Shown: positions 4,237 through 52,610 of the stretch, in pieces | How positions within the stretch are numbered: position 1 is the first letter of the stretch | Layout: every line of letters starts with the position of its first letter | Source: an uncultured Gammaproteobacteria bacterium | Lineage (GTDB): Bacteria > Patescibacteriota > Microgenomatia > Levybacterales > UBA12049 | DNA: 64,000 nt | NCBI GenBank assembly: GCA_964424775.1 | Contig: CAYRJZ010000004.1 | Location: 3,262 to 67,261, forward strand | Reading direction: 5' to 3' | Notes under the pieces: generated by a model | Told to the model about the DNA's origin: nothing | Database searches by the model: none | Seen by the model: the letters and a program-made list of their open reading frames with translations, nothing else | Translations under genes and position numbers: made by a program

Positions 4237-4953
4237 TTACTCTGCTCTGAATTCTCTTCCCCCTCTCTTGAGATTTTCTAATGACAAATCATACAATTCC
4301 TTGTACCTCACTGCCAAATGGAATGCCTGACTTTCGGCTCGGGTAGGCTGAGCAATATGTGAGAGAAACTGCATTACTTGTCTTACATCAAATCGATCTA
4401 TCTCAAAAAACAATACCGTATCTTTCTCCTCATTCAGGCAGTAATCAGTTGGGTCATCTGCAGGAAAACCAACTCCAATTTCAGAAGCTCCTCTTGCAAA
4501 TGCCAATGCACGTTTCTCAAGAGAGTTATTGAGATGATATTCTCTATGGTTTCTACATACCTCGCATTCACACACATTATTTTTTTGATGATTTACATCT
4601 ACACCAGTATGTTGAGAAAAGATAGCATGATCAGAAGATACTGGAGCCATCTGACTTATTTGTCGAATTGTGGGAGATATATGTGGACCTTCATCCACTT
4701 CAGGTCTATCGATAACTGTCCCGACAACAGTAATTGTATTATCTGGCAAAAGAAGAGATGCAATTTTATGTTTATAAAAAAGTCGGGCAAATAATAACTC
4801 ATCCCTACTATAATCTACCTTTACTAAATCACCATTCGGGAAAGCTATCCTCTCTCTTTTTGATGAATAAAAAACATCATTTCTTAAACCATGACTGAAA
4901 AGCTCATATGACATAGGAGAGGTATTATACAAGATTCTACTGTGTTGCTGCAT
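4237..4953 (-). CDS. Hypothetical protein with CxCxxC metal-binding cluster
   Basis: 238-aa ORF tightly packed between neighbours. CECEVCRNH cluster. No family recognised. Confidence 0.45.
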   Translation of the reverse strand: MQQHSRILYNTSPMSYELFSHGLRNDVFYSSKRERIAFPNGDLVKVDYSRDELLFARLFYKHKIASLLLPDNTITVVGTVIDRPEVDEGPHISPTIRQISQMAPVSSDHAIFSQHTGVDVNHQKNNVCECEVCRNHREYHLNNSLEKRALAFARGASEIGVGFPADDPTDYCLNEEKDTVLFFEIDRFDVRQVMQFLSHIAQPTRAESQAFHLAVRYKELYDLSLENLKRGGREFRAE

Positions 4954-15755: not shown

Positions 15756-17993
15756 ATGAAATCATCTTTCATTAATCTTTGCGAAAAAATAATCACCTTT
15801 TCCTTTTATGCACTTTTTGCACTCATCCCCATTGTGATGACAAATACCACATCAGAACTTTTTGAACTGAATAAAATGTGGCTCACCTGGGGACTTTCAA
15901 TTGTCATTCTTGCGTCATGGATAATAAAGATGATCCTTCAAAGAGAAATCTTTGTTCAGCGTACTCCTCTGGATATACCAATTATACTTTTTCTTCTCTC
16001 TCAAATAATCTCTACCATATTTTCTCTTGACTCTCGTGTCTCATGGTGGGGGTATTATTCACGTTTTAATGGTGGTCTTCTTTCTTTTCTCTCCTATGCA
16101 GCACTCTACTATGCATATGCGTCAAATATGTCACGGGGACAAATGTACACAACTATAAAAGTCATTCTAGCAACTGCAGTATTTGTTGCACTTTGGGGAT
16201 TACCATCACATTTTGGAGCAGATCCTTCATGTCTCTTATTTAGAGGGACACTTGACGTTTCATGTTGGACAGAAGCATTCCAACCAACAATTCGTATCTT
16301 CTCTACTCTCGGTCAGCCAGCTTGGCTCGCTGCCTATCTTGCGGCACTAATCCCACTTGCAGTCGCTTATTCCATTTCTCATGCAGAAAAAGAAAAACAG
16401 TCATCACCTATCTCCTCATTTACAGACTGGAAATTTATTTCCTATGTCATAATTACTGCAATTTTTTATCTTGATCTTGTTTATTCAAATACGAGAGGTG
16501 GATTTTTGGCATTCTGGGCAGCAAATATTCTTTTTTGGGGAGTTCTTTTTATACGACGAACATTTCATCTCAAAAAATTTATCCAATATGCACTTCTTTT
16601 TAATGTAATTTTTCTCATCATTAACTTTTTCTCTGGAACACCCATTCCACAACTTGATTCTTTTACTTTCTCCGGTATACAAAAGTTAGCTACACGCTCT
16701 GCTACTAACCCAACAACACCCCCAACAAATACTCCTGCCCAACCAGCAGCAGGAGGTACAGAATCAGGTAATATCAGACTCTATGTCTGGAAAGGTGCAA
16801 TTGATGCGTGGAAGGCAAATCCAATTTTTGGAACAGGAGTCGAGACGTTCGCTTTTGCTTATTACAAACACCGACCTGCTGGACACAATCTCACATCAGA
16901 ATGGGATTATCTCTATAACAAAGCACATAATGAGTATCTCAACTACCTCACAACAACTGGTATTGCCGGCCTCATTACTTATATCTCTATAATTACACTC
17001 TTTCTCTTTTATGCAACAAAATCTATGCTTCGTAAAAATGACGATGAAGAGACTAAAACTCTTATGCCTACTCTTTTCTCGCTTGCATTAGTAACTGGAT
17101 TTGTGAGTATTCTTATCTCAAATTTCTTTGGATTCTCAGTCGTCATGATGAACGTTTTTCTGTTCTTTTTCCCTCTTTTCTACTTTTTTATCAATAAACA
17201 CATCCAAACTAAAAAAGCATTAAACTTCTCTTTCACTTCTCACAAATACGACAAAAATTATATTGATCCATATCAGTGGACTGGAATAATTCTTATATTT
17301 CTCGTTTCATTTTATTCACTTTTTCTCTTGATGAGATTCTGGCAAGCTGATAAGGCGTATGCACTCGGATACAATCTCTCACGAGCAGGTGACATTCAAG
17401 GTGCTTACACAAACCTCACTGAAGCGGTACGACTCCGTTCAGCAGAACCAGTTATAAAAGATGAATATGCGGTCAATCTTGCAACAATAGCCACTGCACT
17501 CCAACAGAATAATGAAGCAAGTAATGCCGCTCAATTTGCGCAGCAGGCAGTTCTTCTTTCAGACGAAATCGTTTCGAACCATCCTAATAATGTTACATTC
17601 TGGAAAAGCCGAGTCCGCATTTTCTATCTATTAAGTCAAACTGATCCACGCTATAATACGGAATCTCTCAAGGCAATTGAAAAAGCATCCGAACTTGCCC
17701 CAACAGATGCAAAGGTCTTGTATAATCTAGGAGTCATTGCAGGTCAAAATGGTAACCCGAAACGAGGAATAGAAGTACTTACAAAAACCATTCAACTCAA
17801 ACCTGATTATAGAGATCCTTACTATGCTCGAGGATTATTTTATAGACAGCTTGCAGTAGATCAAAATGATAGAGTGATTAATAACGATATGCAACAGAAA
17901 GCTATAAATGATATGAAATATATTTTAGAAAATATGAGCAAAGATGATGAAGCTGCTCAAACCGCCCTGAAAGGATGGGGTGTTACTCTCTAG
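15756..17993 (+). CDS. O-antigen ligase (Wzy_C) domain membrane protein with C-terminal TPR repeats
   Basis: Polytopic N-terminal region. HNEYLNYLTTTGIAGL matches the O-antigen ligase H-N-x-[YF]-L signature. C-terminal about 250 aa are TPR-like. Confidence 0.65.
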   Translation: MKSSFINLCEKIITFSFYALFALIPIVMTNTTSELFELNKMWLTWGLSIVILASWIIKMILQREIFVQRTPLDIPIILFLLSQIISTIFSLDSRVSWWGYYSRFNGGLLSFLSYAALYYAYASNMSRGQMYTTIKVILATAVFVALWGLPSHFGADPSCLLFRGTLDVSCWTEAFQPTIRIFSTLGQPAWLAAYLAALIPLAVAYSISHAEKEKQSSPISSFTDWKFISYVIITAIFYLDLVYSNTRGGFLAFWAANILFWGVLFIRRTFHLKKFIQYALLFNVIFLIINFFSGTPIPQLDSFTFSGIQKLATRSATNPTTPPTNTPAQPAAGGTESGNIRLYVWKGAIDAWKANPIFGTGVETFAFAYYKHRPAGHNLTSEWDYLYNKAHNEYLNYLTTTGIAGLITYISIITLFLFYATKSMLRKNDDEETKTLMPTLFSLALVTGFVSILISNFFGFSVVMMNVFLFFFPLFYFFINKHIQTKKALNFSFTSHKYDKNYIDPYQWTGIILIFLVSFYSLFLLMRFWQADKAYALGYNLSRAGDIQGAYTNLTEAVRLRSAEPVIKDEYAVNLATIATALQQNNEASNAAQFAQQAVLLSDEIVSNHPNNVTFWKSRVRIFYLLSQTDPRYNTESLKAIEKASELAPTDAKVLYNLGVIAGQNGNPKRGIEVLTKTIQLKPDYRDPYYARGLFYRQLAVDQNDRVINNDMQQKAINDMKYILENMSKDDEAAQTALKGWGVTL

Positions 17994-17994
17994 T

Positions 17995-18555
17995 ATGCTT
18001 AAAATTGTTCAAGCTCCTCTTCCAGTTCTTGCTAAAAAGGCCGAAAAGATAAATAAAATTGACCAAAGTACTTTAGATTTGATTGATGAGATGACTGTGA
18101 CTCTTGAGAACGCTCGTGATCCAGAGGGAGTCGGGCTTGCAGCGCCACAGGTTGGAAAGTCTCTCCAACTCTTTATTGTTAAAGAGTCGAAAAAAGCCAA
18201 GCTTCAGGTATTTATAAATCCTGTTCTTTCAATACCAGCAGGACAAAAATTGTCATACACTGAGACACCGAAAAATGATGAAAAAAAAGAAGTAAAACTT
18301 GAAGGGTGTCTGTCCCTTCAAGATATTTGGGGAATTGTTGAAAGATATGAGAAAGTTCAGCTTACTTATCAAGATGAAAAAGGGACAACTCATACCCAAC
18401 ATTTTGATGGTTTTCTTGCAACCATAATTCAACATGAAGTTGACCATTTGAATGGCATCCTTTTCCCACAGAGAGTTTTAGAACAAAATGGCAAACTCTA
18501 CAAATCCCATGTTAATAAAGATGGCGAGATGGAGTTTGATGAAATTACCGTATGA
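17995..18555 (+). CDS. def: Peptide deformylase
   Basis: EGCLS and HEVDHLNG metal-binding motifs. Start placed at MLKIV, the ATG at 17995. Confidence 0.85.
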   Translation: MLKIVQAPLPVLAKKAEKINKIDQSTLDLIDEMTVTLENARDPEGVGLAAPQVGKSLQLFIVKESKKAKLQVFINPVLSIPAGQKLSYTETPKNDEKKEVKLEGCLSLQDIWGIVERYEKVQLTYQDEKGTTHTQHFDGFLATIIQHEVDHLNGILFPQRVLEQNGKLYKSHVNKDGEMEFDEITV

Positions 18556-19415
18556 TTCGTATAGTCTTTTTTGGGACACCTCACTTCGTTGTTCCGATTC
18601 TCACATCACTCGCAACACAATTTGAAATTGTCGGCGTGGTCACAGCCCCAGATGCACCAGTAGGAAGAGGAAACAACATGACTCCTTCACCTGTGAAAAA
18701 AGCTGTATTAGAAATATCCCCAGATATAAAAATATTTACACCAGAAAAATTAAATACTTCGATTATTTCTGACCTTAGCAGCCTTAATCCCGATTTATTT
18801 GTCGTTGCAGCATATGGAAAAATAATTCCTTTAAATATCCTTTCTATTCCTCGTTTTGGCTCTCTTAATGTTCACCCCTCTCTCCTTCCAGAACTTCGAG
18901 GACCCTCTCCTATCCAAACCGCAATTCGTGATGGAAAAAAAATCTCAGGAATCTCAATTATAAAAATGGATGAGAAAATGGATCATGGTCCACTCATTGC
19001 TCAGTGGGAATTTCCTCTATCGTCAGAAGATACTTTCGAATCACTTCAGAAAAGCATGTTCGCCTTTAGTGCAGAAAAACTTCCAGAGACTATTACACGA
19101 TATATAAAAGGGGAAATCGTACCAATACCTCAAGATGAATCAAAAGTGAGTTTTTGCGAGTTAATTAAAAAAGAAGATGGATATATTGACCTTCAAAAAG
19201 ATATTGATCCTGAAGAGTTAGATCGAAAAATAAGAGCGTTTTTCCCATGGCCAACTGTCTGGACAAAAGTAAAAACCAAGACGAATGAAGAAAAAATCCT
19301 CAAATTACTCCCAAATAAAATGATACAGATTGAAGGAAAAAATCAGATGACCATGAAAGACTTTTTTAATGGATATCCTGAACTTAAGCAGATACTGGAG
19401 AGACTTCTGGTGTAA
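18552..19415 (+). CDS. fmt: Methionyl-tRNA formyltransferase
   Basis: IVFFGTPHFVVPIL and NVHPSLLPELRGPSPIQTAI motifs. Overlaps def by 4 nt. Confidence 0.85.
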   Translation: MIRIVFFGTPHFVVPILTSLATQFEIVGVVTAPDAPVGRGNNMTPSPVKKAVLEISPDIKIFTPEKLNTSIISDLSSLNPDLFVVAAYGKIIPLNILSIPRFGSLNVHPSLLPELRGPSPIQTAIRDGKKISGISIIKMDEKMDHGPLIAQWEFPLSSEDTFESLQKSMFAFSAEKLPETITRYIKGEIVPIPQDESKVSFCELIKKEDGYIDLQKDIDPEELDRKIRAFFPWPTVWTKVKTKTNEEKILKLLPNKMIQIEGKNQMTMKDFFNGYPELKQILERLLV

Positions 19416-19617
19416 TTACTTCTTCTTCGATAGCAGTAACTTTCTTATACATTCTCAAACACTTTGTGCAGAGTTTGACTCTTTTTGCTGTTCCATCCAC
19501 AACAACACGAGTCGAATGGAGATTGGGTTTGAAAACCCTTCCAGTTCGTCGTTTTGAGTGAGAAACGTTGTGTCCATATAGAACACCTTTTCCACATGAT
19601 GCACATTTCATTGCCAT
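19384..19617 (-). CDS. rpmB: 50S ribosomal protein L28
   Basis: MAMKCASCGKGVLYGHNVSHSKRRTGRVFKPNLH matches L28. Converges on fmt and overlaps its 3' end. Confidence 0.8.
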   Translation of the reverse strand: MAMKCASCGKGVLYGHNVSHSKRRTGRVFKPNLHSTRVVVDGTAKRVKLCTKCLRMYKKVTAIEEEVITPEVSPVSA

Positions 19618-19724
19618 ATTTACCTCTTTGAATTGCTAGTATACTAAAAAATAGCTATAATTACAAATAGATAATACTCAAAGCTTCTCAATCATCAAAT
19701 TAAAGCTTTGAGATTTATTGTATT

Positions 19725-20378
19725 ATGGATGGAATTTTTAGCCCTGTAGGACTGTTAACCCTTGGTATACTCATTTATTCAGCTATTCTTCATGAGATAG
19801 CGCATGGATACGTAGCTGAGCGACTCGGCGATCCAACAGCACGACTTTTAGGAAGACTTACCCTCAATCCTCGACCACATATTGATCTCTTTATGAGTAT
19901 CATTCTTCCTCTTCTTCTCTTCCTTTCAAATACTGGTATCATCTTTGGAGGAGCAAAACCAGTTCCAGTTGATCCGTTCAATCTTAAAGAAGGACGAAAA
20001 GATATTGCTCTTGTCTCACTTGCAGGTCCTGCAACAAATATACTTCTTGTACTCATTGGAACAGCTATCTTTAAAGTGTTTAGTCTTGGCGATCTCCAAA
20101 CTTCAACTCTTGGTCTGATCTCATCTCTTGTAGTTGGAACAATAATAAAAGTAAACCTCTCCCTAGCTATCTTTAACTTACTTCCAATTCCTCCTCTTGA
20201 TGGATCAAAGGTATTCGCACTTCTTCTTCCTGAAAAAATGGCAGATACCTATCTTTCCCTCAGTTCAATCGGTACTTTACTCCTTCTTATTCTTCTCATG
20301 TTCCCAATTGGTGGCTTTTCACTTATGAACCTTGTGAGTAGTCTTTACATTTTCTCACTCAACTTACTCGGCTTTTAA
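19725..20378 (+). CDS. Site-2 protease family zinc metalloprotease (peptidase M50)
   Basis: HEIAHG zinc motif in a TM helix. Polytopic. LPIPPLDGSKV second motif. Confidence 0.75.
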   Translation: MDGIFSPVGLLTLGILIYSAILHEIAHGYVAERLGDPTARLLGRLTLNPRPHIDLFMSIILPLLLFLSNTGIIFGGAKPVPVDPFNLKEGRKDIALVSLAGPATNILLVLIGTAIFKVFSLGDLQTSTLGLISSLVVGTIIKVNLSLAIFNLLPIPPLDGSKVFALLLPEKMADTYLSLSSIGTLLLLILLMFPIGGFSLMNLVSSLYIFSLNLLGF

Positions 20379-20412
20379 TTTAACGAGATTTTCACGATAA
20401 AAGACTATATAC

Positions 20413-20447
20413 CTTGACACTCCTTAATGATCCACATATACTGAGGC
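20413..20447 (+). promoter_or_regulatory. Near-consensus sigma70 promoter (TTGACA-N17-TATACT)
   Basis: ttgaca ctccttaatgatccaca tatact read directly from the sequence. No protein gene follows on this strand before the terminator at 20634. Confidence 0.6.
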
Positions 20448-20453
20448 TGCTCT

Positions 20454-20662
20454 TTGATACTTGAGTTGATCGTAATATTTTTTCTCTACAAATTTTCATA
20501 ACTTTGAGGTATCCGTCATTGACGGAGACAAGGTGGGGTTCTTAAGCCTGCGGGTAAAAGACAGCCTCCCTATTTTTTTACTCAGAGGAAATGAACGATC
20601 TATGACTCGGTATTCAAAGAGCAGAATTTATTAAAAAGCTACAGAATTCTGTAGCTTTTTAA
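20454..20662 (+). ncRNA. Candidate small non-coding RNA (about 200 nt) between consensus promoter and palindromic terminator
   Basis: Bounded by the promoter at 20413-20447 and the terminator at 20634-20662. Contains internal hairpins (e.g. ccgtc-att-gacgg). No ORF over 10 codons. Confidence 0.4.
20634..20662. terminator. Bidirectional rho-independent terminator (A-run, perfect palindrome agctacagaattctgtagct, T-run)
   Basis: aaaaagctacagaattctgtagcttttt. Lies between convergent units. Confidence 0.7.
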
Positions 20663-21435
20663 ATATTTCTCCTTAAATAATTAGCAATAGGATTGACTAC
20701 AGGTAGCAAAGTAGTTCTAATCGTTTGAGGTAAAACAGCTCTGTAAATTGACTGCATCTCTCTCAAACGCCTTGCTCCGGGATATTTTTTAATACTCAGT
20801 TCTGACAACTCATGAAAAGGCTCAAAAAGATCATCTGGTAAGTGGCTTACCTTTCTCATTTTTCTTCCAAAATCTAACAAATTAAAAAAATCTTTTTTCC
20901 TCACATAGCCAAATAGTAATGTAAGGTGAAATTGTGTCATTGGATCAAAAGTTACTACTTCACTATCATATAAATTTCCTTTTACAGGCTTCAGAACATC
21001 GGGAGATACTGATATCTCAATATCTCTATATGATATTTCTGCCTCATTTCCATCATAAAACAAAGCATTTGGACAAAGAATATCTACTTTTTGATCTGAC
21101 ACATGTGCGTTAGCATAACTCTCAATTTTTTTAAATGACACTGGCTCTTTATTTGAACGAACAATAGCTATATCAATATCCCGCAAACTTGCTGGCTCAC
21201 CTGAATATGCAGACAATGTTCGATCAGAAATAGAAGATGCTCTCCCGTATGATCCAACAAGTCTTGTATCATAACCCACATTTCCTAAAGTAGATTGTGC
21301 CTGTAATACATTTTTTGTAACAATGAGTCTTGCTTCATTTTCCGGAAGTCTTCTATTTTCCATGCGCAACATTATACAATTGAAAGGGGTTGCTGGTGAA
21401 GAGGAAGTTTTGATACAATGAGGCGTACTATTCAT
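20659..21435 (-). CDS. Hypothetical protein
   Basis: 258-aa ORF. Weak resemblance to a nucleotidyltransferase fold (GSYGR...DIDIAIV), not convincing. Confidence 0.4.
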   Translation of the reverse strand: MNSTPHCIKTSSSPATPFNCIMLRMENRRLPENEARLIVTKNVLQAQSTLGNVGYDTRLVGSYGRASSISDRTLSAYSGEPASLRDIDIAIVRSNKEPVSFKKIESYANAHVSDQKVDILCPNALFYDGNEAEISYRDIEISVSPDVLKPVKGNLYDSEVVTFDPMTQFHLTLLFGYVRKKDFFNLLDFGRKMRKVSHLPDDLFEPFHELSELSIKKYPGARRLREMQSIYRAVLPQTIRTTLLPVVNPIANYLRRNI

Positions 21436-21437
21436 TT

Positions 21438-21511
21438 GCCGACTTAGCTCAGCGGTAGAGCAGTTGTTTTGTAAACATCAGGTCGCCAGTTCAAATCTGG
21501 CAGTCGGCTCA
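21438..21511 (+). tRNA. tRNA-Thr (anticodon UGU)
   Basis: Cloverleaf folded by hand. Acceptor GCCGACT/AGTCGGC. Anticodon loop TTTGTAA. T-loop TTCAAAT. CCA not encoded. Confidence 0.8.
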
Positions 21512-21528
21512 GATTCCCATTATTCCAA

Positions 21529-21612
21529 GCTGGGTTGGCAGAGCAGCAATTGCACGTGGCTGTAGACCACGCGGTCGAAAGGCCTCCGGGGGTGCAAGTC
21601 CCTCATCCAGCA
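21529..21612 (+). tRNA. tRNA-Tyr (anticodon GUA), long variable arm
   Basis: Acceptor GCTGGGT/ATCCAGC (one G-U). Anticodon stem CGTGG/CCACG with loop CTGTAGA. Long variable arm. T-arm GGGGG-TGCAAGT-CCCTC. Confidence 0.75.
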
Positions 21613-21672
21613 CATTTTCTAAAGCGTATGGCAATGGCATATGACCATAGCTATACGCTTTTTTTTGAAGCT

Positions 21673-21744
21673 GCCGATGTGGCTCAGTGGTAGAGCACGT
21701 TCTTGGTAAGAACGGGGTCACGGGTCCGATTCCCGTCATCGGCT
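21673..21744 (+). tRNA. tRNA-Thr (anticodon GGU)
   Basis: Acceptor GCCGATG/CATCGGC. Anticodon stem CGTTC/GAACG with loop TTGGTAA. T-loop TCCGATT. Confidence 0.8.
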
Positions 21745-21801
21745 CACGTATTTCATTTCTGCCTCAAATCATGTATAATATGGCTCTGAAGGAAAAAATC
21801 T

Positions 21802-21978
21802 ATGGCAAAAAAGGGTGAACATCGAATAACTTTGGGTCTCAAATGCTCTGTTTGTAAAAACAGAAATTATGTTACGACAAAAAATAAAATGGAGACTCCA
21901 GAGAAATTAAAACTCAAAAAATTCTGCAATACATGCCGAAAAGTGACTGAGCACACTGAAGTTGAAAAATTAAAGTAA
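21802..21978 (+). CDS. rpmG: 50S ribosomal protein L33
   Basis: 58-aa ORF, below the ORF-track length cutoff. MAKKGEHRITLGLKCSVCKNRNYVTTKNKMETPEKLKLKKFCNTCRKVTEHTEVEKLK. Two CxxC pairs typical of L33. Confidence 0.85.
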   Translation: MAKKGEHRITLGLKCSVCKNRNYVTTKNKMETPEKLKLKKFCNTCRKVTEHTEVEKLK

Positions 21979-21997
21979 TTTAAATTCAACTTAGCAG

Positions 21998-22030
21998 GCG
22001 TAGAGAAAGCTGTTTTCTCTACGCTTTTTT
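21998..22030 (+). terminator. Rho-independent terminator after rpmG
   Basis: gcgtagagaaagctgttttctctacgc followed by tttttt. Confidence 0.6.
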
Positions 22031-22048
22031 AGTATAATGGGTCAACAA

Positions 22049-22119
22049 AGGGGTGTGGTGAAATGGTATCACAGCAGTCTCCAAAACTGCTTTTCACGGT
22101 TCGAGTCCGTGCGCCCCTG
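22049..22119 (+). tRNA. tRNA-Trp (anticodon CCA)
   Basis: Acceptor AGGGGTG/CGCCCCT (with G-U pairs). Anticodon stem GCAGT/ACTGC with loop CTCCAAA. T-arm CACGG-TTCGAGT-CCGTG. Preceded by a TATAAT box. Confidence 0.75.
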
Positions 22120-22166
22120 CACATCTCTCTGAACCCCACATCTTTAGGCTCTGTTACAATTACATC

Positions 22167-47677: not shown

Positions 47678-48058
47678 CTCTTTTTAGCACTCTTTTCCCA
47701 CCACTGTGAAAATTTTATTTTAAGTTTGGCTTTTCACACCAATCTTTTTTACTTTCAAGAACAATTATCAGAGACAGGTCCTTACTGCTAAAACCCCTCT
47801 GTTAATGCATTTTTTCTTTCAACTTTCAAAAGGGTGACACTTTATTCCATTTAATGACAGCATCCTCTCATATCTCATCATATTTTTCTTTCCAATCTTA
47901 CGTCACCATTTAAGAGATTGACTGTCACAACTTCTCATCACAGAGCAATTTACTTATAGGTTATTGACACTGATGTTCTAGTTTGTTACTTTAATAGAGG
48001 GTAATAATCACATTGATTAGAATAAGTCTTAAATGACCATCTAAGACCCACTTAACCT

Positions 48059-48274
48059 ATGGCAGAACAAAAAATGTCTATCAATGACCTTCCAGATCTT
48101 CTCACAGTTCGTGAAGTAGCTGAAGTACTTCGTGTTTCACCTCTTACTATCAAACGTTGGGGGAAAAGAGGAAAATTACCTGCAATTCGTATTAACAGTC
48201 GTGGTGATAGACGATATAAAAAAGAAGCCGTCCTCTGGCTTCTGGGTATTCAGGAAAAAGGCGGAACGGTTTAG
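48059..48274 (+). CDS. Excisionase/MerR-type helix-turn-helix DNA-binding protein
   Basis: 71 aa. LLTVREVAEVLRVSPLTIKRWGKRGKLPAIRI matches the HTH_17/Xis-like motif. Confidence 0.6.
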   Translation: MAEQKMSINDLPDLLTVREVAEVLRVSPLTIKRWGKRGKLPAIRINSRGDRRYKKEAVLWLLGIQEKGGTV

Positions 48275-48331
48275 CCTCATCTTTCTTGTTTTATTTCTCG
48301 ATGGCCTCTATAATCAAACACAATTCTCCCT

Positions 48332-49072
48332 ATGGTAGAACACCTTTCCAATTCTCTAGTAGTACAAGAAGAAAAAACAATACCAAATGAAACCCTTCCG
48401 ACCCACCCTGATGCAATAGCAATCCTCAGTGGAGGCATTATGAATCGTCCACGCTTTGGCAGCGATTGGTTTGAGCCTACTAACTTTGCCCACGGACTTG
48501 GTGGAAAAGCCCGCGTCATTGCTGCAACAGAACTTGCCAACCAATTCCCCAAAGCCAAATTACTGACTCTCAGCCATGTCAATCCTGAAGTTCCCTCTCA
48601 GGCAGATATCTACGCTTCAACTCTCACCCGCTTCGGTGTCAAACCTGAACGAATAGTGAAAGACTCACACGCACATAATACGTTTTCAGAGCTCGTTGCC
48701 ATTCATAATCAAGCCGTTGAACAAGGGTGGCAACATATTTATGTTGTGAGCAATTCGTATCACAAAAGGGCACCGTATATGATAGAACATCTCAAAGAAA
48801 TCATCGACCACTATCATGTTCATGATCCTCAACTTATAGGAAGTGTACAAAAAACTCTGACATTTATCGCAGCAGAAGATTTACTCCAAGAACGAAATAA
48901 CCGATATAGAAGATTGATTGATCAATGGAAAGAGTCTCCATCTTACGAACGGCTTCTTCAACTGGAAGCAAAAGGCTTGCAAGATCTTCAAAACGGAGTA
49001 TATCATTTCTCTTCCCGAAGCGAAGCTGTAAGGACAGGTATCCTTATAAAAAATGTTCTCACATCCCTTTAA
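48332..49072 (+). CDS. DUF218 (YdcF/SanA-like) domain protein
   Basis: DAIAILSGG ... motif and size typical of DUF218. Confidence 0.55.
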   Translation: MVEHLSNSLVVQEEKTIPNETLPTHPDAIAILSGGIMNRPRFGSDWFEPTNFAHGLGGKARVIAATELANQFPKAKLLTLSHVNPEVPSQADIYASTLTRFGVKPERIVKDSHAHNTFSELVAIHNQAVEQGWQHIYVVSNSYHKRAPYMIEHLKEIIDHYHVHDPQLIGSVQKTLTFIAAEDLLQERNNRYRRLIDQWKESPSYERLLQLEAKGLQDLQNGVYHFSSRSEAVRTGILIKNVLTSL

Positions 49073-49099
49073 CCGCACTTTTCATCACAAATTATTCTG

Positions 49100-49145
49100 A
49101 TGAAAAGAACGCGGCCCAGTCCTCCTGAACTGGGCCGATTCGTCT
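49100..49145 (-). terminator. Terminator unit 1 of high-GC island (hairpin with GGAGG loop plus U-tract on minus strand)
   Basis: Minus strand reads agagacgaatcggcccagttcaggaggactgggccgcgttctttt. Confidence 0.55.
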
Positions 49146-49171
49146 CTGTTTGGAATTTGATGAGACCAAAC

Positions 49172-49444
49172 TCATCCCATCACACTTCGGACCCGGGTAG
49201 TGTATGCATCTACCCGGCCGATGGCAAGACGTACGACTTTACCGTCATACGACTCAACATCCCTTTTAGAGATGAGATAATATCTATACGGCTCAGGTTG
49301 GACCCAAAAGTCCTTTCTGATAACAAGGTACGAATCTGTTGTGCGGGAAACTATCCCGACTCCCCAGAATCGTGCTCCTTTTGGCAGGACTTTTGTCCCT
49401 TTCGGTATCTGAGTGAGGTCAATTTCACATTCCTGACCGAACAT
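49172..49444 (-). CDS. Small hypothetical protein (high-GC island)
   Basis: 90 aa. AAAGGAGA RBS 5 nt upstream of ATG. High GC. Possible small beta-barrel, uncertain. Confidence 0.45.
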   Translation of the reverse strand: MFGQECEIDLTQIPKGTKVLPKGARFWGVGIVSRTTDSYLVIRKDFWVQPEPYRYYLISKRDVESYDGKVVRLAIGRVDAYTTRVRSVMG

Positions 49445-49627
49445 GAGATTCTCCTTTTCCTAAGCCTCCCCCTACACAATGCAGAGAGAATTCGCTAAGA
49501 GACGATCTCAAGACAATAAAACAGATGTCTAAAACGCCATTGTTTTTTATCCATGAAATTGTCTTGAAGTCCCTCTTAATGAATGAAAATAGTATTCCCT
49601 CTTTCATCATTATGCCTATTACATAAT

Positions 49628-49668
49628 GACAAAAGAACGGCCCCGATCCTCCGATCGGGGCATTCGTC
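49628..49668 (-). terminator. Terminator unit 2 of high-GC island (homologous to unit 1, with compensatory stem changes)
   Basis: Minus strand reads agagacgaatgccccgatcggaggatcggggccgttctttt. Confidence 0.55.
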
Positions 49669-49698
49669 TCTCGCCTTTCGGCCAAACTACTCAGGACG

Positions 49699-50433
49699 TC
49701 AGGCGTCCATCTTTCCCTTCGAACCGAACAGATTCAGCAGGTCGCCGAAATTTGGCAAGCTGCCAATCTTTCGGTCTCTCGCCGACGAAAGCACTCCGAT
49801 GATGATCGGACTCGTCTCGTTGCGGAGCAGGTCGTCGATCTTCTGGTTCAGCTGCCCGCGAACGTCCTGTTCTGCCTTCTTGATGGCAGCAGTATACTCC
49901 GCCGTTGCGAACTCAAAGCCGAAACCTCTCCTCTGGTCCAAGACGCTCCTCCGGATCTCATCCAGAACAGACATGACTGCCACACGGATTGAGGTGTCAC
50001 CGACAACCTCAAGATACTTCACGATCGCCTGCCTTGCAGGAAGCTCATACTGATCGATCTCATGAGGGTACGGCATCGTCATGCGTACGATGACGAAGCC
50101 GAATTCCGGCGCCTTCTTCATCACATACGCTGCAAGCTCCTCCTGCGTCAGCACGAGCTGACTCGAAGGAGTGAGAAGCCGCCGCTCACCCGCAAGTTCC
50201 ACCTCATGCCCGTTTATGAGGACGGACGTGACGTACTGATGGAAAGGAGTGGTATTCCGGAACGTAAATCCCGGCACCATTCCCTTTTGTGGGATCACAA
50301 CGAACGGATGACCAGATCCGCAGGCTGGACAGTTGTTCAGCTCCAGGACTGCATCATCCGCGGTCACGACGAGATCGAAGGTGTTCACGCCTGTGAAAGG
50401 CGTAAGAAGTTGATCCTTTTCGGACTCGGTCAT
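49699..50433 (-). CDS. Hypothetical protein, paralogue A with CPxCGxxHP motif (high-GC island)
   Basis: 244 aa. GGGAGA RBS 8 nt upstream. NNCPACGSGHPFVV motif shared with the neighbouring gene. No family recognised. Confidence 0.5.
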   Translation of the reverse strand: MTESEKDQLLTPFTGVNTFDLVVTADDAVLELNNCPACGSGHPFVVIPQKGMVPGFTFRNTTPFHQYVTSVLINGHEVELAGERRLLTPSSQLVLTQEELAAYVMKKAPEFGFVIVRMTMPYPHEIDQYELPARQAIVKYLEVVGDTSIRVAVMSVLDEIRRSVLDQRRGFGFEFATAEYTAAIKKAEQDVRGQLNQKIDDLLRNETSPIIIGVLSSARDRKIGSLPNFGDLLNLFGSKGKMDA

Positions 50434-50775
50434 TGAATTGTTCTCCCTTTCAAAAATGATCGGTCTACTCCCATTTGCTGCAAATGCAGCAGACTTGCCA
50501 TCCGGGCAAAAGTCATCAGAAATGGAAGGGTCTGGCTAACGCCCTTAAAAAGAGACAACTTCCCTCCTTAAGGCCATTAGCCAGTGTGTAGTTTCGTAAA
50601 GAGACGATTTCAGGACAACATCACATCAATTCAGAACGCAAATGTTCTTTCTCTTCATGAATTATCCTGAAATTCCTCTTTACGATTAATTGTTAAAGTA
50701 CACTCTAGAAATATTTTTTTCGAGAGGCCCGGAGAGATTCCCCGGGCCTCCTGTTTTGTCTTGTACGACTTGTAG

Positions 50776-51453
50776 CTAGTTGCCCAGAATCCTGGCCAGG
50801 AAGGAACGTCGCTCCGACCGATGAGGTGGGAGCTCACCCATGTTGTTCGCGATGGTGGTCATGGTCATCACCATCGTGATCTCGAAATCCTCGCCGAAAG
50901 GAACTTCGGCAAGAGCTTCTTCGTAGGCTTCCTCGCTCATGTAGCCGAGGTTGATCTGAAGTGGTCCCCTTGAGACCAACTCTTCGATCGCCTGGTCGGC
51001 TCCCTCGTCGGGGGACTGATGGCCGAGTGCGCGGTAGAGCTCTGCGAGAGCACTCCCGGCATTCATCTGAATTTCCGCGAACTCCTCGCTCTCGACCGGA
51101 TGAAGGACCACGGTTATGGGTCCAGCAAAAGGCAGCTCCCCGTCGGAGGGGCCAAGGTCTGCCGGAGAGACCTCTACGACCTCACCGGGTTCGACGATCC
51201 GCTCTGGCTCTCCCTCGAGATCTGCAGGGAGATCGTAGTGATACACGCTGATTGTAGCGCGCACACTGAGCGGATTTTGAACGAGGAGCGTGGGAACTTC
51301 ACCTGTCACGTAGACAGGATGATCCCCACACCTCGGACAGACAACTGCAGGAATTTCCTGACGATCAGGACCGAGCACCTGGATCCCATACGTGGGACCT
51401 TCGTATGCTCGACGCTCATCGCCTTCGGTCTGGGACATTTCCTCGTCGGTCAT
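50776..51453 (-). CDS. Hypothetical acidic protein, paralogue B with CPxCGxHP motif (high-GC island)
   Basis: 225 aa from ATG 51453 (GGAGG RBS upstream); the ORF opens at 51528. VVCPRCGDHPVYV motif. Very acidic. Confidence 0.5.
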   Translation of the reverse strand: MTDEEMSQTEGDERRAYEGPTYGIQVLGPDRQEIPAVVCPRCGDHPVYVTGEVPTLLVQNPLSVRATISVYHYDLPADLEGEPERIVEPGEVVEVSPADLGPSDGELPFAGPITVVLHPVESEEFAEIQMNAGSALAELYRALGHQSPDEGADQAIEELVSRGPLQINLGYMSEEAYEEALAEVPFGEDFEITMVMTMTTIANNMGELPPHRSERRSFLARILGN

Positions 51454-51722
51454 TTTCTTCCTCCGAAACGAAAAAACGAGAGAATCACACAGCGTGACTC
51501 TCCACCGATCTTCACCAGCTCTTTCCAAGCATGGCTTATAACCGGCTTTCTAGACACAATTATGTCCAGAAAACCAGCTATAAGCACTTATAATCTAGTC
51601 GTTATTCCTTATTGAGAAAAAATAAATTCGCTTTTGAAGAATTAGCTTTCACTAATAAGGATTTTTAATGAGCAAAACGATTAAAATTATACTCTTCGAG
51701 GCTAGGAAAGTCAACTATAGGA

Positions 51723-52610
51723 CTAAGAATGAGTGTGATACTCTGCTCTGTGATTTTCTTTGATCTTTTTATAATCAGGATCCTGGAAGTGGTCTTTCAG
51801 AAATGCCATCGTCTCTTTCGGTGGCTGAGTATTAACGAATACGCCAGTCCCCACCTCAAACCCTCCTGTTGTTTTCTCCCGCGGAATAAGCCGGATATAC
51901 CAGTCCCCTCCTGGGTAAATATAGAAGTTATATGGGAATTCATCACCATGTCGTGCACTCATTATTTTTATGAGTTTGGAAAAAATACCAGCAAAATCAT
52001 GGATCTCATCATCTGTTATTTCGCCAAAGAGACGTCCATGTCGTTTTGGTGCTATCCACACCTCATCCGGCCATGAAGAGTACTGAGGACAAAAAATTGA
52101 GAAATGGGAAGTCTGCACTCCTTTTTCATCATCATGTGCAACACTTTGAAGTCGTGGGATCTCCAGAAGGACTTTCTCCGGCACAACTGCTATCTGTGTA
52201 TGTGAATGCGGAATACTCTCCCCTGCTTTTGGGCCGTGATTGTGGAAAATATAGACCTGACCTTTGTGGGCATGTTCATTATATCGCTGCCTATAAACCT
52301 GAAAAATTAGCTCAATTTGTTCAAGTGAAAAAGCATCAAATGAGGTATGGTGATCAGGAGTATTGAGAACAAGCTCATGATGAGTGGTAAAGGGAAATTT
52401 GTTCGGAATAACCCGGACTTGCCAATGCATATCTCCTTTCTCTCCTCCTATCCGATAATATTCTTCCTCCCGGCTTTCCCGTCCGGGACAAAAAGGACAT
52501 GCTGGCTCTGTTCCATTGGCTACATCTGGTCTTTTTGCTCGCCTTGGAGCAGATATTACCCATTTTTTCGAAATTGGATTTTGAAGGAAAGAAAAGGACT
52601 TATCACTCAT
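51723..52610 (-). CDS. galT: Galactose-1-phosphate uridylyltransferase family (HIT-like nucleotidyltransferase)
   Basis: SAPRRAKRP, zinc-site ACPFCPG and active-site FHNHGPKAGESIPHSHTQI align with GalT's SPHRAKRP / C-x-x-C / HPHGQ motifs. Confidence 0.7.
   Translation of the reverse strand: MSDKSFSFLQNPISKKWVISAPRRAKRPDVANGTEPACPFCPGRESREEEYYRIGGEKGDMHWQVRVIPNKFPFTTHHELVLNTPDHHTSFDAFSLEQIELIFQVYRQRYNEHAHKGQVYIFHNHGPKAGESIPHSHTQIAVVPEKVLLEIPRLQSVAHDDEKGVQTSHFSIFCPQYSSWPDEVWIAPKRHGRLFGEITDDEIHDFAGIFSKLIKIMSARHGDEFPYNFYIYPGGDWYIRLIPREKTTGGFEVGTGVFVNTQPPKETMAFLKDHFQDPDYKKIKENHRAEYHTHS

Follow-up and report, generated by a model that had tools for sequence, protein, structure and literature searches.

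Comparative sequence evidence indicates that a ~184-nt interval of the window (the whole 64,000-nt stretch of DNA analysed, AT-rich with a GC content of ~0.37) is a real, independently transcribed gene for a structured non-coding RNA that is strongly conserved in Levybacteria. We consider this RNA to be probably a very divergent 6S/SsrS-type RNA of Levybacteria, carrying an extra hairpin (P4). It was assigned to an independent gene because it had a conserved promoter, a strand-specific signal to its covariance model (R1), covarying helices, no conserved open reading frame (ORF) and a variable downstream neighbour. The first-pass annotation had proposed an independent, structured transcript of ~200 nt here, as opposed to the leader of an adjacent gene, and the comparative evidence (promoters in 71/71 homologues, covariation, varied neighbours) supported that proposal. 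The elements of the locus were as follows:

20414-20419, plus strand: -35 hexamer TTGACA; TTGAC[A/T/C] was kept in 67/71 homologues
20437-20442, plus strand: -10 hexamer TATACT after a 17-nt spacer; exact TATACT in 57/71 homologues
20449-20632, plus strand: conserved RNA body of ~184 nt (R1 match at 20447-20636, 149 bits)
20449-20467 with 20604-20622, plus strand: terminal closing helix P1, 5' strand GCUCUUUGAUACUUGAGUU, nearly invariant in sequence
20468-20473 with 20595-20600, plus strand: helix P2, 5' strand GAUCGU; two-sided changes in 6/6 pairs
20480-20487 with 20584-20591, plus strand: helix P3, 5' strand UUUUCUCU, a weak A-U/G-U helix; 97% of cells paired
20488-20508, plus strand: central loop, 5' side (ACAAAUUUUCAUAACUUUGAG); by column conservation, C-N-ACAA is conserved and UGAGGUA invariant
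20509-20529, plus strand: hairpin P4, GUAUCCGUCAUUGACGGAGAC, in the 5' loop strand; compensatory changes in 7/9 pairs
20530, plus strand: linker of one nucleotide
20531-20567, plus strand: apical arm, P5 (AGGU/GCCU) and P6; 13/13 pairs with compensatory changes
20568-20583, plus strand: central loop, 3' side (CCCUAUUUUUUUACUC); conserved (U/A/C)CCU(A)AUU, the counterpart of ACCUgga in the Rfam 6S consensus
20584-20622, plus strand: 3' strands of P3 (20584-20591), P2 (20595-20600) and P1 (20604-20622), from covariation
20623-20632, plus strand: single-stranded 3' tail AGAAUUUAUU, consensus GAAUUUAUY, kept with or without a terminator hairpin
20631-20662, bidirectional: intrinsic terminator with a 14-bp stem, shared with a convergent ORF at 20659-21435

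Homologues were gathered from 80 genome loci collected via the M50 protein, in which the closest relatives of the window were Levybacteria (Candidatus Levyibacteriota, Microgenomates, candidate phyla radiation). A sequence profile of 20400-20670 had a counterpart in ~45 of the 80 loci, and R1, built from 40 distinct RNA copies, found one copy each in 50 of 81 sources (the window and 49/80 related genome loci), scoring 87-168 bits in sense versus <29 bits in antisense orientation. The 21 remaining loci, searched with filters off, held no further members, and a pattern scan of metagenomes added 27 member contigs with one copy each. The same pattern gave 73 matches in viral contigs, and an association with phages was rejected, as none of the 73 was a true member. 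The interval downstream of the protease gene, singled out in the first-pass annotation for comparison with related genomes, kept the RNA, its promoter and its structure across dozens of them.

The promoter TTGACA-N17-TATACT (20414-20442; 11/12 matches) was the top sigma-70-like site within 3 kb, bearing out an earlier call of a near-consensus sigma70 promoter whose range of 20413-20447 was slightly wide. Exact TTGACA-N17-TATAMT occurred once when both strands of the 64-kb window were scanned, and allowing up to 1 mismatch gave 3 occurrences versus 1.24 expected by chance. All 71 homologues with enough upstream sequence possessed the promoter, with a spacer of 16-18 nt and a fixed distance to the RNA: the -10 element always ended 6 nt ahead of an invariant G, equivalent to G20449 in the window. 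From this geometry, transcription is predicted to start (+1) at G20449. The probable 3' end was placed where conservation stops, with the conserved 3' tail included.

The RNA was predicted to fold at -80.2 kcal/mol, versus -44.3 +/- 4.1 kcal/mol for shuffled sequences (z = -8.9; 0/200 shuffles as good). Across 69 distinct sequences, 94.4% of cells formed standard pairs and compensatory two-sided changes were seen in 33/43 pairs; as controls, 0/500 shuffles reached any of five covariation measures, and sliding the partners by 1-3 columns gave pairing of 44-52%. In this architecture, P1-P3 make up an interrupted closing arm of ~30 bp, which leads into a large central loop with 21 nt in its 5' and 16 nt in its 3' strand and then into an apical hairpin (P5/P6); the covarying P4 is inserted in the 5' loop strand beside the apical arm and makes the fold a three-way junction. 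The first nucleotide of the RNA was already paired in the model fold, where P1 begins at G20449, and helices 1-2 had 94-99% of cells paired, with compensatory changes present. P5 joined AGGU (20531-20534) to GCCU (20564-20567) by covarying Watson-Crick pairs, and the apical loop was conserved as C-YGNG-G (CUGCGG in the window, CCGUGG in most homologues). At the base of P4, G-C, U-A and A.G were conserved, and its top was variable and covaried freely; the hairpin was missing in a Shapirobacteria relative, in which 2 nt replaced 24 model positions. The motif CAA(A/G)U of the 5' loop strand recurred in RNAs of Shapirobacteria and Woesebacteria. Insertions of ~30-50 nt in the P4 loop were observed at two loci (L029:1229-1448 and L020:3773-4015), indicating that large expansions are tolerated there.

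Of two hairpins read by eye in the first-pass annotation, ccgtc/gacgg corresponds to P4 (20509-20529), but ggagaca...gacagcctcc is not a conserved pairing, its place being taken by AGGU/GCCU. Pairing of GAGG (20506-20509) with CCUY was likewise rejected as a conserved helix, as it overlaps P5 and breaks in precisely those 8 sequences whose outer P5 pair has changed to G-C; P5 retained 3/3 pairs in 16/16 variant sequences with a varied 3' strand. The GAGG/CCUY helix may have a transient role. In a mutual-information scan for pseudoknot or tertiary covariation, the top column pairs all lay in model helices and weaker pairs outside them were unconvincing. The 5' end CUCUUUGAUAUUGG was also likened to the 16S rRNA 5' end AGAGUUUGAUCMUGG; UUUGAU alone is common, and the resemblance was judged to be chance.

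The RNA region contained a GTG-start ORF of 33 codons (20533-20634, plus strand) and, on the minus strand, one of 35 codons, so that an earlier statement that no ORF there exceeds 10 codons holds for ATG starts but not for these. Neither was conserved: the start codon was found in ~21/73 homologues, and the longest ORFs of homologues differed in frame, strand and position. A protein-coding reading was rejected on these grounds.

The genes upstream of the RNA (15756-20378) all lie on the plus strand and comprise a 745-aa ORF, def (17980-18555), fmt (18552-19415) and the M50 peptidase gene (19725-20378). Downstream, the perfect-stem terminator proposed in the first-pass annotation was present, with its full stem at 20631-20662 and the earlier coordinates off by 1-2 nt; its palindrome AAAAAGCTACAGAATTCTGTAGCTTTTT occupies 20633-20660, and A and U runs flank the stem. 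The stop codon of the convergent 258-aa ORF (20659-21435, minus strand), for which no Pfam match was found, lies inside the 3' arm of the terminator. This ORF separates the RNA from tRNA genes for Thr, Tyr, Thr and Trp (21438-22120), whereas in most relatives the tRNA cluster lies directly 3' of the RNA. Among homologous loci, the RNA followed the tRNA-Thr/Tyr/Thr cluster more faithfully than it followed the M50 gene. A separate extended -10-type promoter, TGnTAAAAT, appeared to serve the tRNA-Thr/Tyr/Thr operon from a position between the RNA and the first tRNA gene; it was seen 10-30 nt upstream of tRNA-Thr in eight loci (L027, L030, L021, L012, L047, L055, L010 and L019).

Known RNA families were sought with Rfam 15, at gathering threshold in the window and 40 loci and in E-value mode on five short stretches. 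The window RNA had no match at gathering threshold and, as a 188-nt query, none at E<=10, and the 40 related loci yielded tRNAs and one TPP riboswitch, nothing else; the scan, which the first-pass annotation had put forward, assigned no known family, leader or attenuator to the RNA. The SRP, tmRNA, RNase P, Y RNA, riboswitch and T-box families were rejected, as none matched the RNA in the window or in the 40 homologous loci, and no tmRNA was called in either by covariance model or ARAGORN, in agreement with the earlier impression that the RNA has no obvious SRP or tmRNA match. SRP domain IV is marked by non-canonical loops and differs from P5 of the window RNA, which has covarying Watson-Crick pairs. 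A retron msr/msd RNA was rejected, there being no adjacent reverse transcriptase gene. Because Rfam finds nothing in the window, the earlier remark that no 6S RNA is recognizable by eye was correct for the sequence, but the architecture and the relatives in sister phyla point to a divergent 6S-type RNA.

6S RNA, a mimic of an open promoter that sequesters RNA polymerase, has been described as present in nearly all bacteria. It is defined as a rod-shaped RNA of 160-200 nt with a central bubble between closing and apical arms and a template for product RNA (PMC8414754, PMC8876501). The window RNA has a length of ~184 nt with its ends paired in a long interrupted arm, as evidenced by P1-P3 covariation; it also has the central loop (21/16 nt) and apical P5/P6 of a rod, but P4 turns the fold into a three-way junction.

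A transitive link to 6S was drawn because of a bridging RNA in Shapirobacteria and synteny. Two loci from sister phyla without a strong R1 match each contained an RNA next to the M50 peptidase gene; protein searches with this peptidase aimed at other phyla yielded for the most part close relatives or short contigs. In Shapirobacteria (L072), the RNA (4436-4603) is flanked by the M50 peptidase gene and a tRNA gene, a matching position, and is preceded by the promoter TTGACA-N17-TATTCT. With filters off, R1 matched it at 4442-4603 (32.7 bits, E=5e-5 in 64 kb), sharing P3, the CCGUGG loop, the loop strands and the 3' tail, with P4 deleted; it folds as a rod, and its sole significant Rfam match was 6S (RF00013), over the full model (27.6 bits, E=4.2e-4). 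The Woesebacteria RNA (L075, 3682-3836) lies within the 290 nt that separate the M50 gene from tRNA-Thr, has the same long closing helix and, like the 6S consensus, contains GGGAG and CACCCACCUGGA; its top Rfam match was again 6S (RF00013), over the whole model and sub-threshold (18.6 bits, E=0.061). Within Levybacteria, the member L017 (141 bits to R1) had 6S as its top Rfam match at full length, at a non-significant 13.1 bits (E=1), with GCCCACCU aligned to CCCACCU of the 6S consensus. All 6S matches in these relatives fell below the gathering score of 46.4 bits. At the bubble motif of the 6S consensus, Shapirobacteria have CCCCACCUGGA, Woesebacteria CACCCACCUGGA and L017 GCCCACCU; the bubble-flanking motifs of Levybacteria, AGG ... 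CCU-(U/A/C)CCU(A)AUU, compare with GGG ... CCC-ACCUgga in the 6S consensus, a short similarity. In the reciprocal test, R1 with filters off did not detect ssrS in the E. coli zapA-ssrS-fau region.

Like 6S/SsrS RNAs (RF00013; E. coli SsrS, B. subtilis 6S-1), the window RNA combines a long interrupted arm that pairs its ends with a large central loop and an apical hairpin, has 16-21 unpaired nucleotides per central-loop strand, is preceded by a strong housekeeping promoter, and places beside its 5' loop strand a weak helix, as expected for a duplex that is to be unwound. Its 184 nt compare with 183 nt in E. coli SsrS, each strand of the closing arm measures ~40 nt and the 3' loop strand 16-18 nt in both, and the 5' loop strand UUUUCAUAAC resembles AUUUCAUACC of E. 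coli. Directly after the apical helix, the 3' loop strand opens with (A/U/C)CCU in this family, as with CCC-ACCUgga in the 6S consensus. In contrast to 6S/SsrS, the window RNA has the additional covarying P4 in its 5' loop strand with the resulting three-way junction, its apical arm of ~13 bp is too short to provide the '-35-like' position, and sequence hardly varies across the family in the terminal helix, the apical loop and the 3' tail. The sequence of P1 and the 3' tail is conserved far beyond the needs of pairing, of which the 6S model gives no account. The gene neighbourhood also differs, with an M50 peptidase gene and a tRNA-Thr/Tyr/Thr cluster here versus zapA-ssrS-fau in E. coli.

Lineage-specific 6S RNAs have been modelled separately before, as with 6S-Flavo in Rfam. 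Together with the non-canonical 6S candidates of Weissella (PMC8414754), this offers a precedent for 6S RNAs missed by the general model and defined by their own alignments or synteny. 6S-Flavo itself gave no match in the E-value-mode Rfam scans, and no sequence relationship was detectable to it or to the Weissella candidates. Ms1 of actinobacteria, a 6S-like RNA of ~300 nt that binds core RNA polymerase (PMC9130861), is likewise a lineage-specific, 6S-shaped and abundant RNA found where canonical 6S was not detected; it differs in its length and in binding the core polymerase, where the window RNA would occupy the holoenzyme, and no sequence or covariance-model similarity between the two was seen.

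If the assignment is correct, the interval would encode the Levybacteria 6S (SsrS) as a stand-alone, stable ~184-nt non-coding RNA that is predicted to be highly expressed. By analogy with 6S, it would imitate an open promoter and occupy the cleft at the active site of the housekeeping holoenzyme of RNA polymerase, with transcription reduced under nutrient scarcity. P5/P6 would stand for the upstream duplex, the 3' loop strand for the non-template strand, the 5' loop strand with the 5' strand of P3 for the template, and P3-P1 for the downstream duplex. Upon a nutrient upshift, polymerase would use the 5' loop strand and the weak P3 as template, with P3 as the proposed main part of it. Synthesis of product RNA is predicted to begin near C20489, the second unpaired nucleotide, on a template spanning 20476-20489, with a product of approximately 5'-GUAGAGAAAAA-3'. 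The GC-richer P2 may limit product length by stopping synthesis there, and the short product would unzip P3 and release the polymerase. P4 sits in the strand expected to serve as the template strand of the bubble. No rearrangement induced by product RNA was apparent: in constrained consensus folds with the template blocked, the 3' bubble strand formed no hairpin and no helix collapsed the bubble, nor did any such helix covary, which is a further difference from 6S/SsrS.

The RNA might alternatively be a Microgenomates-specific structured housekeeping RNA that does not act on RNA polymerase, serving as a ribonucleoprotein scaffold or as a ligand-binding or catalytic RNA, with its 6S likeness convergent or an ancestral remnant. 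The junction nucleotides CNACAA, UGAGGUA, GAC and CCU-AUU are single-stranded and nearly invariant, whereas the flanking helices covary freely, a pattern typical of a tertiary core or protein site; the CCGUGG apical loop, the P1 sequence and the GAAUUUAUY tail are conserved in sequence, and the three-way junction, the lack of an Rfam match in the window and the failure of R1 to detect E. coli ssrS fit this reading as well. We nevertheless regard it as unlikely, given that 6S was the top Rfam family, in full-length alignments, for three relatives or members (L072, L075 and L017), that the size and loop dimensions fit 6S, that no candidate partner protein was consistently adjacent and that mutual information revealed no pseudoknot or tertiary covariation. 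A broader way of failing the 6S model also appears improbable to us, namely that the RNA is either a Microgenomates RNA that does not work as a 6S (possibly descended from one, with its invariant core, loop, helix and tail as a ribonucleoprotein, catalytic or ligand platform) or a 6S derivative blocked by P4, which inhibits polymerase without release through product RNA.

Two other readings were weighed against the 6S-type assignment. As a trans-acting, base-pairing regulator, the RNA could mask ribosome-binding sites through its conserved, unpaired pyrimidine motif CCUUCCU, which resembles an anti-Shine-Dalgarno sequence, or bind the 3' end of 16S rRNA through UGAGGU; its conserved unpaired motifs, (U/C)CCU and UGAGGUA, show complementarity to Shine-Dalgarno and anti-Shine-Dalgarno sequences, and it has its own promoter and, at many loci, a terminator. 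However, seed-type small RNAs do not typically have 184 nt, seven conserved helices and a 5' end that is fully paired; no target was identified; and part of the motif's CCU is tied up in P5, whose pairs persist where the 3' strand varies, making such a role very unlikely. If the RNA acted in cis, it would belong either to the M50 peptidase mRNA, as a structured 3' UTR, or to the tRNA-Thr/Tyr/Thr operon further downstream, as its leader or attenuator. No terminator was found between the M50 stop codon (20378) and the RNA promoter; the RNA lies 78-220 nt upstream of a co-oriented tRNA cluster in ~28 loci; and a comparable terminator directly follows the RNA in ~1/3 of homologues, the other ~2/3 of loci being without an obvious terminator hairpin. 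Yet the tRNA cluster is convergent in ~12 loci, an unrelated convergent ORF and a terminator intervene in the window, the RNA lies away from the M50 gene and on the opposite strand in L009, L012 and L027, and the tRNA operon has an apparent extended -10 element of its own. The varied gene context and the conserved consensus promoter in 71/71 loci therefore argue against a cis-regulatory role, which we consider extremely unlikely.

The standard Rfam model misses the window RNA completely, and we came across no publication dealing with 6S, or with structured RNAs, for the candidate phyla radiation. Should the 6S assignment be true, Levybacteria and, via their relatives, Microgenomates would keep a global brake on RNA polymerase despite genomes of ~1 Mb, and the alignment of 69 distinct sequences with its covariance model could be used to annotate such genomes. 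A stable hairpin in the template strand of a promoter mimic would then also be a natural test of what the polymerase cleft tolerates. Should the assignment prove incorrect, the RNA would represent a well-supported new class of structured RNA in a poorly understood, uncultured lineage.

Three further features were observed in the window and related loci. A segment of the window at 48001-52000 had a GC content of 0.45-0.49 versus ~0.37 elsewhere, with no Rfam match in that stretch. In one Levybacteria locus, a TPP riboswitch at Rfam gathering level was located ~660 nt downstream of the RNA (L062:4477-4586). Two distinct conserved motifs adjoin the -35 element (20405-20413 in the window) in homologues including L010, L019, L022, L009, L039, L200, L225 and L243: ACTATA(Y)A(Y)C lies next to it in ~17 homologues, the window included, and a perfect palindrome, TTGTCAAGTTGACAA, overlaps it in another subgroup. 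These motifs could represent an operator, an UP-like element or a divergent promoter.
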